From the IMG/VR virus record IMGVR_UViG_2703718772_000017: DNA of 5,490 nucleotides; one strand, 5' to 3'. Position 1 is the first letter of the stretch. The number at the start of each line of letters is the position of its first letter. Under the pieces are notes generated by a model that ran no database searches, had not been told where the DNA came from, and was given only the letters and a program-made list of their open reading frames with translations. Source of the stretch: a virus (lineage: Duplodnaviria > Heunggongvirae > Uroviricota > Caudoviricetes). This document shows positions 1-5,038 of the stretch, piece by piece. Made by a program: the position numbers and the translations under genes.

Positions 1-233
1 TGACGGCGACGCCGCCCTGACAACATCATAATGTTTAAATGTCATTATTCCTCCCGGCCGGGATAGTGTATTAAATCAGATATGGAGTGGGCTGGCTGTA
101 GTCCGGAAGCCTGAATGACACTCGGGGACTACAGCCCAAGAAATGAAAAAAGGCCACGCAGTTGCGCAGCCTGATAAACCCTGGTTAAAATCCACACGAT
201 AACAACACAACAATATCAGTATCTCATGCTATT

Positions 234-258
234 GCCCGAACCCATTCGGGCATTTTTT
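234..258 (+). terminator. Rho-independent terminator for a rightward transcript entering from the left
   Basis: Stem GCCCGAA (234-240), loop CCCA, stem TTCGGGC (245-251), followed by ATTTTTT (252-258). Confidence 0.6.
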
Positions 259-264
259 ACCCAT

Positions 265-289
265 AAAAAAAGCCCCTCCGGAGAGGGGC
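265..289 (-). terminator. Rho-independent terminator ending the leftward replication-module operon
   Basis: On the minus strand: stem GCCCCTC (283-289), loop of 4 nt, stem GAGGGGC (272-278), then a T7 run (plus-strand A7 at 265-271). It lies back-to-back with the plus-strand terminator. Confidence 0.65.
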
Positions 290-492
290 ATGTTTGCATG
301 CACATTCTTTTTCTTGCATGGTGCCGGGTGCCTCCCGGTGAATTCAGTATCAGCACCTGAATCCGCGATTATCACATATACCTGGTTGCTGATTGCCCCT
401 CCGCACAGGGGGATTCACCATGCAGTAGTATTTTTAATAAACAGCAAATAAAAAAATCAAGCATTATGCAGGCTGTTTCTTTTTATCACCGG

Positions 493-1104: not shown

Positions 1105-2070
1105 TTATCCCCTGAAACCAGGCGGAATTTCTGTATCCGGTTCAGAAATATGATTCACACAACGCTGTACAGGTGAACGTCCCAAGCGGATGACCAGTTC
1201 GTCCCATTTTTCGCGGAGTTTTGACGGGCTCATGATGTTTTTTACCCAGAATGGATCTCGCTGTACCCGACCAAACATTTCGCAAATTTGTCTGTGGCTT
1301 CTGCCATCCAGCATCCGCATTGTGCGCACGTCATTGGCCCAGGCTGTCCAGTTAGGCTCTTTTGGTCGCATGATCTCTCCATCGTCGCTGGCAGCCTGTT
1401 CGTAAAGGTTCACGATCCGCCCCCAAATCCACTGCGCACACGCCAAATCCTCCCTGCTACCCCACTGGCGTTTTTTCGCACTAAACACAACCGCGTCGGG
1501 GTTCCGGATTAAAAAATCCTGTTCAGCGGTCTGCGGGTCCGGTTGCGAAGCTTCCGGACGAAAAGTGTTTTTATTCTCTGTAGTAATCTCTGTTGTATTC
1601 TCTGTAAGATCATCAGGCCATTTTGACCCGATGACATTGGGTCGTTTTGAACCAATGGAGCGTTTCATTTTGACCTCTTCCATCGTGTCATTTTGACCTG
1701 ATGGAGCGGCGCATTTTGAACCGATGGATTCGTTCAATTTGCCACCATCTAAAAGCTCGTTCCCATAGTTGATCGTGTAGAAATTGGTCATATCGCGCTT
1801 TGATTTATTGAGCTTTTCACAACGCAAAAGCCCCAGCGTTTTCAGACTTGCAAACGCGCGCTTTAACGTTGACTCTGACCAGAATGGGAACTGTTCCAGC
1901 CATTGTTCCGTTGTGTTGTAAATCCAGCGAACACCATCACATTCCATGCCGGAATTGGTATCTCTCAACCAGTAATGCAACTGCTGCAACACAATGGCTT
2001 CATTTAAGCCAATCTTCATCGCAAGCTGTGTGTTTATAACCAGTGGGCGTTCAGCAAAAAGAAGGCTCAT
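1105..2070 (-). CDS. Phage replication initiation protein, lambda O-like architecture with DnaT-like C-terminus
   Basis: ORF-track frame 1105..2124 begins with TTG; the first ATG is at 2070-2068 (MSLLFAERPLV...). A repeated SIGSK/IGSK linker is encoded exactly over the DNA iterons. The C-terminus ...HISEPDTEIPPGFRG resembles the C-terminus of primosomal protein DnaT as recalled from memory. The gene sits downstream of the cro-like and cII-position genes. Confidence 0.8.
   Translation of the reverse strand: MSLLFAERPLVINTQLAMKIGLNEAIVLQQLHYWLRDTNSGMECDGVRWIYNTTEQWLEQFPFWSESTLKRAFASLKTLGLLRCEKLNKSKRDMTNFYTINYGNELLDGGKLNESIGSKCAAPSGQNDTMEEVKMKRSIGSKRPNVIGSKWPDDLTENTTEITTENKNTFRPEASQPDPQTAEQDFLIRNPDAVVFSAKKRQWGSREDLACAQWIWGRIVNLYEQAASDDGEIMRPKEPNWTAWANDVRTMRMLDGRSHRQICEMFGRVQRDPFWVKNIMSPSKLREKWDELVIRLGRSPVQRCVNHISEPDTEIPPGFRG
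1561..1612. other. AT-rich tract adjacent to the iterons (putative DNA-unwinding element)
   Basis: AT-rich stretch containing TTCTCTGTA at 1574-1582 and 1598-1606 and a variant at 1586-1597. It lies immediately downstream of the iterons in the gene's direction, as in lambda ori. Confidence 0.5.
1617..1757. repeat. Origin iterons inside the replication gene (putative ori)
   Basis: Five to six direct repeats at about 23-bp period with core (T/G)CATTTTGA(A/C)C, starting at 1619, 1643, 1666, 1689 and 1712, plus a degenerate copy at 1735. Confidence 0.7.
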
Positions 2071-2572
2071 AATTCCATCCAGCTTTTTGTTGGTATTGCT
2101 GTCGATACGCAAGTTTGAAAGCAATTGCTTTTTCTATAAGTTCGTCAGTTTCACGATCCACTACGGCAGGATCAGCAAAAAGCAGTCCGGACTCCACCAC
2201 ATCGCCATATTCTTTGTTTAACCCGGCGATCATGTACGTGATGCTTTTTCCGTCACTAATTTCACGATACAACCTGAAATCATTAATCCGGATAGCCTCC
2301 ATAATTGCAGGCACTAGCGCCGTGAACTTTTCACGCTTATCCCTAGTGTCGATAGCCTTCCAGCGTTCGAATATCTTCACTCGATTAACGCCAAGCGCTC
2401 GCTGATCAACCGCGCCACCTTCATCTGTGACACGCTGAACATCGATGTTCGGGCGCTCTTTCAAAGCCCAGAATGATTCAGTGATTAATATCGTCGCCTG
2501 CTCCTGTGTCATTCCTGGTCGACATATCCAGGCATCCAGAGCCTCACGAGCCTGTTCAGGAGTGATTTTCAT
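2051..2572 (-). CDS. Hypothetical protein in the cII position (173 aa), possibly YdaT-like
   Basis: ATG at 2572-2570. The start overlaps the dicC-like stop by 17 nt and the stop overlaps the replication gene start by 20 nt, indicating one operon. The segment REKFTALVPAIMEAI resembles my recollection of YdaT; this is unverified. Confidence 0.6.
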   Translation of the reverse strand: MKITPEQAREALDAWICRPGMTQEQATILITESFWALKERPNIDVQRVTDEGGAVDQRALGVNRVKIFERWKAIDTRDKREKFTALVPAIMEAIRINDFRLYREISDGKSITYMIAGLNKEYGDVVESGLLFADPAVVDRETDELIEKAIAFKLAYRQQYQQKAGWNYEPSFC

Positions 2573-2783
2573 TGTTCAACCGCCCCGCCCGCTTCGTCTT
2601 ACGATATTCGTCATAAACCTTGGGATCATACAGAAGCTCGCCGCCAGATGCCTCCTGTAGACGCATCGCGCGACCTTCAGGAACCAGCTCTTGCCATTGA
2701 GAAACAGCAGATGGGTCAACGCCAGCAGCTTTCGCTACTTTGGCTTTCGTACCGTAAAAATTAATTACGTCTGATTTAAACAT
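2556..2783 (-). CDS. dicC: DicC-like Cro-type regulator (75 aa)
   Basis: ATG at 2783-2781 with GGAGGT 3 nt upstream is preferred over the ORF-track TTG at 2810. It is divergent from the dicA-like gene. The sequence ...LVPEGRAMRLQEASGGELLYDPKVYDEYRK... is consistent with DicC as recalled, and the length matches about 76 codons. Confidence 0.75.
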   Translation of the reverse strand: MFKSDVINFYGTKAKVAKAAGVDPSAVSQWQELVPEGRAMRLQEASGGELLYDPKVYDEYRKTKRAGRLNNENHS

Positions 2784-2860: not shown

Positions 2861-3268
2861 ATGAACGAGAAAACTTTAGGTCAACGCATTAGAGAAAGAC
2901 GTAAGCAGGTAGGCTTAAGTCAAAACGGTTTAAGCAAAGCTGCTGGCGTATCTGGCTCATCAATTTCATTATGGGAAAGTGACCATACAGCCCCGCGTGG
3001 GCAAAATTTGCATCGCCTCGCCGAGGTATTGCAATGTTCACCAACCTGGATACTGTTTGGCGACGAGGACAAAACACCAGCTCCCCCTGTTTCACTCGAT
3101 AGTGCCTTAGACTTATCGGAAGATGAGTTAGAGATGCTGCGTTTGTATCGCGCACTTCCTAAATCAGAGCAACAAGCACAACTCAGCGAACTCCGCGCCC
3201 GCGTTGAGAATTTTAATCGCCTGTTCACCGAGCTATTAGAGGCTCGCAAACGCAACAAGCATCAATAA
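2861..3268 (+). CDS. dicA: DicA-type HTH (XRE family) repressor, 135 aa
   Basis: N-terminal HTH (LGQRIRERRKQVGLSQNGLSKAAGVSGSSISLWESD). The sequence VLQCSPTWILFGDEDK and the exact length of 135 aa match DicA as recalled. Divergent from the cro-like dicC. Confidence 0.85.
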   Translation: MNEKTLGQRIRERRKQVGLSQNGLSKAAGVSGSSISLWESDHTAPRGQNLHRLAEVLQCSPTWILFGDEDKTPAPPVSLDSALDLSEDELEMLRLYRALPKSEQQAQLSELRARVENFNRLFTELLEARKRNKHQ

Positions 3269-3329: not shown

Positions 3330-3385
3330 TACTTGAGTTTTCTCATCAAAAAATCTTGACGAAAAATAATGAGAAAACTAAATTA
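3330..3385 (+). promoter_or_regulatory. Putative dicB-operon promoter flanked by operator copies
   Basis: TTGAGTTTTCTCA at 3333-3345 is identical to 2797-2809. An inverted copy of the 10-mer AGTTTTCTCA lies at 3370-3379. Between them is -35-like TTGACG (3355-3360) and, 18 bp downstream, -10-like TAAATT (3379-3384). Confidence 0.5.
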
Positions 3386-4434: not shown

Positions 4435-4492
4435 TTTCTGGTGACGTTTGGCGGTATCAGTTTTACTCCGTGACTGCTCTGCCGCCGTTTTT
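4435..4492 (+). ncRNA. dicF: DicF small RNA (ftsZ-targeting sRNA) with intrinsic terminator
   Basis: TTTCTGGTGACGTTTGGCGGTATCAGTTTTACTCCGTGACTGCTCTGCCGCC followed by a T-run matches DicF as recalled. Terminator stem GGCGG (4451-4455) with CCGCC (4482-4486), then TTTTT (4488-4492). It lies immediately upstream of dicB. Ends are approximate. Confidence 0.75.
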
Positions 4493-4661
4493 AAAGTGAA
4501 TTTTGTGATGCGGTGAATGCGGCTAAGCGCACGCGGAACAGTTAAAACCAAAAACAGTGTTATGGGTGGATTCTCTGTATCCGGCGTTAATTGTTAACTG
4601 GTTAACGTCACCTGGAGGCACCAGGCACTGCATCACAAAATTCATTGTTGAGGACGCGATA

Positions 4662-4850
4662 ATGAAAACGTTATTACCAAACGTTAATACGTCTGAAGGT
4701 TGTTTTGAAATTGGTGTCACTATCAGTAACCCTGTATTTACTGAAGATGCCATTAACAAGAGAAAACAAGAACGGGAGCTATTAAATAAAATATGCATTG
4801 TTTCAATGCTGGCTCGTTTACGTCTGATGCCAAAAGGATGTGCACAATGA
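4662..4850 (+). CDS. dicB: Cell division inhibitor DicB (62 aa)
   Basis: ATG at 4662 with GAGGA 7 nt upstream. MKTLLPNVNTSEGCFEIGVTISNPVFTEDAINKRKQERELLNKICIVSMLARLRLMPKGCAQ matches DicB as recalled. It follows dicF. Confidence 0.85.
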   Translation: MKTLLPNVNTSEGCFEIGVTISNPVFTEDAINKRKQERELLNKICIVSMLARLRLMPKGCAQ

Positions 4851-5038
4851 ATTCAGCATTTGCGCTTGTTCTGACAGTTTTTCTTGTTTCCGGAGAGCCA
4901 GTTGATATTGCAGTCAGTGTTCACAGGACAATGCAGGAGTGTATGACTGCAGCAACCGAACAGAAAATTCCCGGTAACTGTTACCCGGTCGATAAAGTTA
5001 TTCACCAGGATAATATCGAAATCCCGGCAGGTCTTTAA
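4847..5038 (+). CDS. ydfD: YdfD-like small lysis protein (63 aa)
   Basis: ATG at 4847 overlaps the dicB stop as ATGA, indicating translational coupling. MNSAFALVLTVFLVSGEPVDIAVSV... has a hydrophobic N-terminus and matches YdfD as recalled. Confidence 0.8.
   Translation: MNSAFALVLTVFLVSGEPVDIAVSVHRTMQECMTAATEQKIPGNCYPVDKVIHQDNIEIPAGL

Follow-up and report, generated by a model that had tools for sequence, protein, structure and literature searches.

A probable lambda-type replication origin inside the initiator gene of a lambdoid prophage of Escherichia coli O111

The initiator gene and its two repeat arrays

The DNA considered here is a stretch of 5490 bases from an IMG/VR virus record (IMGVR_UViG_2703718772_000017), which in its full length is referred to as the window. 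It is 100% identical to a lambdoid prophage that adjoins rspAB in E. coli O111 genomes, which is the position occupied by the cryptic prophage Qin in K-12. The minus strand of the window carries an operon with a Cro/DicC-like gene, a YdaT/CII-like gene, the gene of a 321-aa initiator and a frameshifted DUF977/Ren-like gene, in this order. According to the list of open reading frames, the initiator gene extends over 1105..2070 on the minus strand, with its ATG at 2068-2070 and its stop codon at 1105-1107. Between 1557 and 1749 this gene contains two adjoining sets of direct repeats, which a first-pass annotation had taken for a replication origin embedded in the gene of its own initiator, and it is this proposal that is evaluated in the following.

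The encoded protein is found in RefSeq from identical DNA as WP_000054483.1, where it is labelled “hypothetical protein”, and it matches PHROG 391, “replication initiation O-like”, with an E-value of 1.9e-92. An AlphaFold model (mean pLDDT 57) divides it into a predicted N-terminal winged-helix DNA-binding domain (residues 10-103; 1762..2043, minus strand; pLDDT 62-79), a disordered inter-domain linker (residues 108-177; 1540..1749, minus strand; pLDDT about 27-33 and throughout below 50, block means 26-44), a C-terminal helical domain (residues 183-296; 1183..1524, minus strand) and a disordered C-terminal tail with the sequence VQRCVNHISEPDTEIPPGFRG (residues 301-321; 1108..1170, minus strand), which resembles the flexible tail of DnaT. 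The predicted recognition helix comprises residues 66-78 with the pattern S-T-x-K-R, and Ser67, encoded at 1870-1872, is its putative specificity residue. As the linker residues correspond to 1540-1749, both repeat arrays lie in the linker-coding part of the gene, and the model places them between two folded domains, as is typical of origins of the lambda type.

The C-terminal domain is homologous to that of lambda O (lambda residues ~170-290), with 34% identity over 148 aa and an E-value of 2e-28 in blastp, and tblastn finds about 37% identity to many O proteins of lambda and Stx phages. The N-terminal domain is not of the lambda O type. A Pfam scan of the whole initiator returned no family at E<=0.01, and a scan of the N-domain at E<=10 gave nothing relevant, with no match to PF04492, PF09681 or RepA_N. 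Lambda O scores 123 bits against PF04492, the family to which the initiator N-domain had no match even at that permissive cut-off, and when the N-domain and lambda O were compared as profiles by hhalign, the probability was 0.4% and no relation was found. A fold search brought up generic winged-helix proteins, with the RepA N-domain structures 5kbj, 4pql and 4pta of staphylococcal plasmid initiators among the better matches, but with scores too weak for membership. Judged from these sequence comparisons, the N-domain belongs to no described family, and the Pfam check that had been recommended for a replisome-organizer N-domain is negative, as neither PF09681 nor any other Pfam family was matched.

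The 23-bp tandem repeats that had been reported for the linker-coding part of the gene are indeed present. Six units are located at 1611-1633, 1635-1657, 1658-1680, 1681-1703, 1704-1726 and 1727-1749, in the region that codes for residues 108-177, and their cores (1619-1625, 1643-1649, 1666-1672, 1689-1695, 1712-1718 and 1735-1741) read CATTTTG, CGTTTTG or CAATTTG on the plus strand, which gives CAAA(A/T)TG as the core of the gene strand. The cores are spaced by 24, 23, 23, 23 and 23 bp. Tandem Repeats Finder detected a period-23 array with 3.7 copies at 1645-1728, and a repeat search recovered the first five units (1611-1633, 1635-1657, 1658-1680, 1681-1703 and 1704-1726) as 23-nt families with a spacing of 23/24. 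With at most one mismatch allowed, the motif CATTTTGAMC is matched only at 1619, 1643, 1666, 1689 and 1712, always on the plus strand, while 1.46 scattered matches would be expected in the whole window, and a sixth, weaker site (CAATTTG at 1735-1741) keeps the 23-bp register. In 2000 first-order Markov surrogates not even a chain of two sites at 22-24 bp spacing occurred, whereas a chain of five is observed. The unit is an imperfect palindrome that reads (C/G)ATC-NGGT-CAAAATG-ACCN-GAT(G/C) on the gene strand, and the units 1611-1633, 1635-1657 and 1681-1703 are good palindromes. An origin of the lambda type contains at least four dyad repeats with an A-tract in the center and a spacing of about two helical turns, and here there are six such units with partly palindromic arms.

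After the iterons in gene direction, three direct 12-nt repeats are found by Tandem Repeats Finder and the repeat search at 1572-1583, 1584-1595 and 1596-1607. On the plus strand these 12-mers read TATTCTCTGTAG, TAATCTCTGTTG and TATTCTCTGTAA; the gene-strand sequence is ACAGAGAWTACW and the encoded peptide is TENTTEITTENK. GC content and duplex stability delimit a low-stability, AT-rich stretch around the 12-mers at 1557..1616. The GC content is 27.5% at 1560-1599 compared with about 45-55% in the surroundings, and 1569-1613 is the least stable duplex inside the initiator gene (z about 2.5); the stretch 1557-1616 is the least stable of the gene at segment lengths of 30, 45 and 60 bp. Directly after the iterons in gene direction there is hence an easily melted AT-rich tract, as in lambda-type origins. 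The tract itself had been recognized in the first-pass annotation, and this part stands; it is not merely AT-rich, though, as it consists of conserved ACAGAGAWTACW 12-mers. We propose that the 12-mer tract at 1572-1607 is the DNA-unwinding element. The unwinding elements of oriC and of iteron plasmids such as RK2 (oriV) are similarly built from 3-4 tandem repeats of 11-13 nt in the least stable stretch adjoining the initiator sites, but ACAGAGAWTACW is unrelated to their 13-mers in sequence, is conserved across phyla, and is usually coding.

Conservation of the arrays and covariation with the initiator

A scan of one genome per species with an alignment of the N-domain resulted in a set of 80 loci (cited below by L numbers where needed) with N-domains that are 48-99% identical to that of the window. 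These loci span Enterobacterales, Pseudomonas, Campylobacterales, Bacillaceae, staphylococci, lactobacilli, Bacteroidota and others. Most of them contain 2-7 sites with the invariant core CAAA(A/T)TG, 22-24 bp or multiples thereof apart and directly after the region that codes for the N-domain. Arrays at the same place are also present in the related phages mEp460_ev081, mEp460_4F5, Klebsiella ST147-VIM1phi7.2, Hafnia yong2, Providencia PSTCR8lys, Erwinia PEp14 and Pantoea AH07. Strictly palindromic sites occur at 4.19 per kb in the zone after the N-domain, and the remainder of the approximately 400 kb of fetched DNA has 0.025 of them per kb; as the strict palindrome criterion misses the sites of the window's own lineage, a relaxed core search was preferred for the window.

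One isolated palindromic site with a core of the iteron type and GGC arms (gene strand CTGG-CAAAATG-CCCG) is found at 836-850 of the window, in the DUF977 pseudogene and about 770 bp from the origin region. It recurs in an E. ruysiae locus (L011), and such sites are rare outside origins, as the above rate of 0.025 per kb indicates.

The 12-mers are conserved as well, and nearly all relatives have 2-5 copies of ACAGAGAWTACW directly after the iterons. The copy number varies in this range also between otherwise close relatives (L012, L021, L022, L049), which suggests slippage in the 12-mer tract. One of these, a metagenome-assembled genome labelled Veillonella (L012), has one ACAGAGAATACA unit more than the window. 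Together with L013 and L061 it is one of three contigs that are 98-100% identical to the module and are filed in bins named Veillonella parvula, Bacillota and Collinsella, and most likely these represent mis-binned E. coli phage DNA. In a further locus, from Shigella flexneri SFBU0723 (L080), the initiator is a pseudogene with frame breaks in the iteron region (…GSKMRRSIRSK*) and 11 gap positions in comparison to the gene of the window.

A region that encodes a disordered linker may in principle be repetitive just because the protein is, and the two arrays would then mirror peptide repeats of low complexity (SIGSK and TENTTE), with no role at the level of the DNA. It fits this explanation that the period of 12 nt is divisible by three and that the peptide TENTTEITTE is conserved. 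The period of the iterons is 23 bp, however, and since 23 cannot be divided by three, the core shifts through every reading frame and is translated as GSK, GQN or VKM, so that the iteron repeat is a feature of the DNA and not a peptide repeat. For the 12-mers, codon usage was analyzed in 47 loci, with the tract delimited by the peptide motif TExTTE in order to avoid circularity. Glutamate is encoded in the tract by GAG 141 times and by GAA not once, compared with 437/517 in the rest of the same genes, and threonine by ACA/ACT 232 times and by ACC/ACG not once, compared with 380/475, so that the synonymous sites are frozen. In five loci, one 12-mer copy is located 11 nt from the next and in another reading frame, where it encodes Arg-Asp-Tyr (R-D-Y); the 12-mer thus persists after a frame change, and it also persists in non-coding DNA, as described next. 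These patterns indicate that the 12-mer array is constrained as DNA, not as protein. As the palindromic arms in addition covary with a predicted DNA-binding residue, we reject the peptide-repeat reading, which we regard as very improbable.

The non-coding 12-mers are those of nine Bacillaceae loci that lack an array in the gene (L058, L059, L060, L063, L067, L068, L076, L079 and L088). In these the 12-mer tract precedes the gene on the same strand, at an upstream distance of about 204-304 nt from the N-domain match at 2501; it reads CAKAGATTACTWCAKAGATTAC there and has at most one site with the CAAAATG core nearby. Translation of the upstream DNA of five of the nine loci encountered stop codons in all three frames. 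It therefore appears from these sequences that the origin element was moved rather than lost in the Bacillaceae homologues. Homologues that keep the protein and lack the array had been named as the observation that would speak against an origin, and the array-less Bacillaceae do not provide it, since they retain the tract just upstream of the gene.

The four bases that flank the core on each side of an iteron are palindromic within a lineage and different between lineages, with arms such as GGT, GGG, GGA, GTG, GAT, TGC and others. The unit reads, for example, ggtCAAAATGacc in the window, gggCAAATTGccc in Pantoea and Erwinia, ggaCAAATTGtcc in Hafnia, gtgCAAAATGcac in Campylobacterales, gatCAAAATGatc in a Limosilactobacillus and tgcCAAAATGgca in a Bacteroidota genome. 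When the 54 non-identical N-domains were compared with these arm classes, residue 67, with which the predicted recognition helix begins, turned out as the most informative alignment column, and it partitions with the base next to the core in all 54 sequences without exception. The base T is found with Ser (27 sequences) and with Ala, Met and Asn (one each), G with Asp (17), A with Lys (5), and C with His or Arg (one each). The Ser/T pairing occurs in both E. coli and Staphylococcus, and the Asp/G pairing in Pantoea, Pseudomonas, Comamonas, Acinetobacter and Campylobacterales. Among near-identical Pantoea domains, a switch from Asp to Lys is accompanied by a change from G to A. Several of these pairings agree with common contact preferences between amino acids and bases. 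We think that, experiments aside, no other evidence speaks as strongly as this covariation for a recognition of the iterons by the N-domain.

Phased direct repeats also make plasmid centromeres, and the array could accordingly be another cis-acting site of this general build, for example a centromere for partition or a site of packaging or recombination. Against this stands that no partition, terminase or recombinase gene adjoins the array, and that the array is tied to the initiator N-domain and covaries with it across phyla. The centromere and packaging-site readings were rejected on these grounds, and we consider it scarcely conceivable that the array is any such site.

Likeness to lambda ori and the recruitment of the helicase

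The layout of the window closely follows that of lambda ori, in which iterons with dyad arms around an A-tract core (CCCT-CAAAACG-AGGG and CCCT-CAAATTG-GGGG) stand 22-23 bp apart. In both systems the iterons are located where the gene codes for the linker, with a purine-rich AT tract and the homologous C-terminal domain coming next in this order, and in both the initiator gene has the cro-cII-O position of the early operon. The differences are that the N-domain is not of the lambda O type, that there are six units where lambda has four, that the tract consists of sequence-conserved 12-mers, that no P gene follows, and that a DnaT-like tail is added. The RepA_N plasmid initiators of Gram-positive bacteria, such as RepA of pSK41/pTZ2162, offer a further parallel. 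Their winged-helix N-domain binds iterons that are central in their own rep gene, so that the origin lies within this gene, and a separate C-domain recruits a host factor.

In a lambda O/P module the loader gene is found directly downstream of the initiator gene. This is not the case in the window, where the next gene is the DUF977/Ren-like pseudogene, nor in relatives, where it is DUF977, PerC, Dam or RusA. Such loader-less modules are known as the O-only type, which accounts for 34 of 314 lambdoid phages, none of which has been studied and the replication of which is not understood (Genome Res 2025, PMC12315714). Like the window, the O-only modules of phages LLS and mEp460_4F5 have a single O-homologue gene and no helicase or loader, and the initiator of mEp460_4F5 is 71% identical to that of the window and is accompanied by the same iterons and 12-mers. 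The cited study covers the gene content of O-only modules, and an origin is not described there. Literature searches on the motifs (TEITTE, the 12-mer DNA and GGTCAAAATGACC), on DnaD-like phage initiators with iterons, on replisome organizers with origins in their genes and on DnaT-like phage proteins likewise brought up no description of this origin. An iteron origin embedded in an initiator gene is of a textbook type, and that of the window is an undescribed but widespread member of it.

Taken together, we consider it probable, and are fairly confident on the basis of these sequence comparisons, that the stretch 1557-1749 is the cognate vegetative replication origin of the lambdoid prophage, located inside the gene of its own initiator. 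The lambda-ori-like layout in an intact initiator gene, as seen in the first-pass annotation, is thus corroborated by the retention of the array in about 80 loci, the partition by residue 67, the iteron design of lambda and the homology of the C-domain. In the mechanism that we propose, the N-terminal winged-helix domain would bind to the 23-bp palindromes of the iterons as a dimer, and residue 67 in its recognition helix would read the base pair that flanks the invariant CAAA(A/T)TG core, as the protein-DNA covariation suggests. By analogy to lambda, the six sites with their central A-tracts about two helical turns apart could then give rise to a wrapped complex similar to the “O-some”, the strain of which may open the adjacent least stable stretch with its three conserved ACAGAGAWTACW 12-mers. 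Transcription of the dicC-ydaT-initiator operon would cross the origin in the way in which transcription from pR does in lambda. The least certain step is the last one, in which the lambda-O-like C-domain and the DnaT-like tail would recruit the helicase-loading machinery of the host, which is invoked as the module itself has no gene for a P, DnaC or helicase protein.

This tail deserves a closer consideration. The last approximately 20 residues of the initiator (…SEPDTEIPPGFRG) match the conserved flexible C-terminal tail of the host DnaT, which has been described before (PMC5778457). E. coli DnaT, also named primosomal protein i, shares these residues (SEPDxxIPPGFRG), but the initiator has no similarity to the N-domain of DnaT or to its three-helix domain that binds single-stranded DNA. 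Accordingly, the NCBIfam model of DnaT (NF002770) aligns with its positions 160-179 only and reaches 16.2 bits compared with a cut-off of 201, and the DnaT chains 2ru8, 6aep and 9zbt of the PDB align with the initiator only at their last 21 residues. A DnaT C-domain, which had been suggested together with the replisome-organizer domain, is hence not present beyond these residues, and the name “Primosomal protein I” that the initiator bears in phage records is misleading. PHROG families 3729, 18526 and 1701 also match the initiator only at this tail, which thus stands at the end of other PHROG replication families too. In the form [IVT]PxGF[RK]G it ends 26 distinct homologues including that of the window (at 1108-1170, minus strand), all of them from Enterobacterales and with differing C-domains (loci L004, L005, L009 and L017-L054). 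It has the look of a short motif that can be passed between proteins and addresses a partner in the host. The contacts of the last 20 residues of DnaT are not stated in a 2026 paper on the preprimosome structure or in reviews. As a tentative extension, which we regard as possible but doubtful, the mimicry of the DnaT tail could serve O-only initiators to dock, when bound to the origin, on the host partner that this tail normally engages (perhaps PriA/PriB of the restart primosome, or DnaB-DnaC), so that the origin would be fired via the replication-restart machinery of the host and not via a loader of the phage. The ACAGAGAWTACW array, which is shared from Enterobacterales to Firmicutes and Bacteroidota even where it does not code for protein, would then be a specific landing site for single-strand loading or priming and more than easily melted DNA.

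It is also conceivable that the array binds the initiator for purposes of control, by autoregulation, as a transcriptional roadblock or in a handcuffing type of copy control, and that the true origin is elsewhere in the phage. Plasmid iterons also act in copy control, and since the 12-mer tract is outside of the gene in some Bacillaceae homologues, its position in the gene is not obligatory. However, the surrounding +/-2.5 kb of about 80 loci contain no second array, the background of sites being 0.025 per kb, the array always adjoins the conserved 12-mer tract of low stability, and the layout corresponds to lambda ori element for element. We therefore consider such a purely regulatory role distinctly unlikely.

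The prophage around the module and the competence of the origin

The replication module is embedded in an early region with recognizable regulators. The operon that crosses the origin starts with the Cro/DicC-like gene (2556..2783, minus strand; Pfam P22_Cro, E 4.5e-16, and RefSeq annotation), which is followed upstream of the initiator by the YdaT/CII-like gene (2051..2572, minus strand; Pfam PF06254, PHROG 163 “CII-like transcriptional activator”, and RefSeq), the initiator gene start overlapping with the latter by 20 nt. Divergent from this operon is the gene of a DicA-like repressor (2861..3268, plus strand; Pfam HTH_3 and RefSeq annotation), which matches K-12 dicA in position and is the immunity control of the replication operon. 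When 1000-2950 was scanned for consensus promoters, no sigma-70 site came up, and Rfam reported no RNA family that overlaps the origin region.

The right-hand side of the window holds ydfA, DicF, dicB and ydfD. The DicF small RNA (sRNA; 4436-4487, plus strand; 72.5 bits), dicB (4661-4850, plus strand) and ydfD (4847-5038, plus strand) have all remained intact, with about 97% identity to K-12 Qin, and in them a cassette for the inhibition of cell division has been retained beside the replication module. A 13-bp tandem repeat (AAAAATAATGACG, 2.6 copies, 3349-3381) is found in the AT-rich spacer between the gene of the DicA-like repressor and ydfA. At the left end of the window, Rfam recognized the prophage sRNAs AgvB (anti-GcvB; 197-258, plus strand; 96.5 bits) and STnc100 (259-449, minus strand; 143 bits) back to back.

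At 829-830, within the DUF977 pseudogene, two flanks meet exactly in the window. Between these flanks the closest genomes have IS1203 (1.3 kb), or else 3.6 kb with two insertion sequence (IS) copies and the Q antiterminator gene. The best-matching complete genomes, among the matches listed, all match in at least two pieces over this junction, or only from 829 onward.

Several observations weigh against a functional origin at this locus. Neither here nor in the relatives examined is the initiator gene followed by a gene for a helicase or for a helicase loader (P or DnaC-like). As to the AT-rich tract, it is short and its instability is moderate, being exceeded in several intergenic stretches of the window. 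The units 1658-1680, 1704-1726 and 1727-1749 are half-palindromes that resemble half-sites, and by the strict palindrome criterion no site of the window's lineage reaches at least 3/4 arm pairs. The initiator model is low in overall confidence, with a fold that matches generic winged-helix proteins, and because the sequences are related, neither the covariation nor the codon counts are made up of independent events, an independence that their p-values overstate. Finally, the O111 prophage is decayed around the module, with the DUF977 pseudogene, no Q gene in the arrangement of the window, and IS1203 at the place of this pseudogene in the closest genomes.

The last point raises the question of whether the origin only looks intact and is in fact dead, the module being inactive due to a lost partner, for instance a helicase loader, or to the surrounding decay. 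The IS1203 junction, the DUF977 pseudogene and the absent Q gene are in line with this, as are the lack of a loader gene and of a consensus sigma-70 promoter in 1000-2950. On the other hand, the repressor gene, the cro-like and the cII-like genes and the initiator ORF (open reading frame) are all intact in the O111 window, and live phages share the loader-less layout. The initiators of the live phages mEp460_ev081, PhiR42_1 and HannyBb are 98-99% identical to that of the window and their origin stretches about 97-98%, with mEp460_ev081 differing at 5 of 301 bases. In a complete circular phage replicon of 43.7 kb, a 69%-identical initiator is the only recognizable replication gene. In view of these relatives we regard a dead origin as unlikely, and the module can be considered potentially functional, as had been thought at first. 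The accompanying notion of a defective K-12 counterpart is also correct, since K-12 Qin has entirely lost the segment that corresponds to 1105-2292, and with it the initiator gene and the origin, and has kept only dicC, ydfX and ydfW.

A lambdoid origin inside an O-like gene would be expected by any phage biologist, and the kind of element is not new. What is gained are exact coordinates and a testable origin model for a module of the loader-less lambdoid type, the replication of which is not understood (PMC12315714). Among 5426 complete E. coli genomes, 1862 and thus about one third contain its origin stretch, and the initiator is mostly annotated as “hypothetical protein”. The rule of one residue and one base (S/T, D/G, K/A, R-H/C) lends itself to a mutational test of recognition and may serve as a predictor of the compatibility of prophage replicons. 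As initiator and origin look intact in spite of the decayed prophage, derepression could fire the origin in situ, which would at most cause over-replication in place. In the Shiga-toxin-producing O111 strains, an intact origin with its initiator in a decayed prophage could thereby drive a local over-replication of the chromosome upon loss of the DicA-like repressor.

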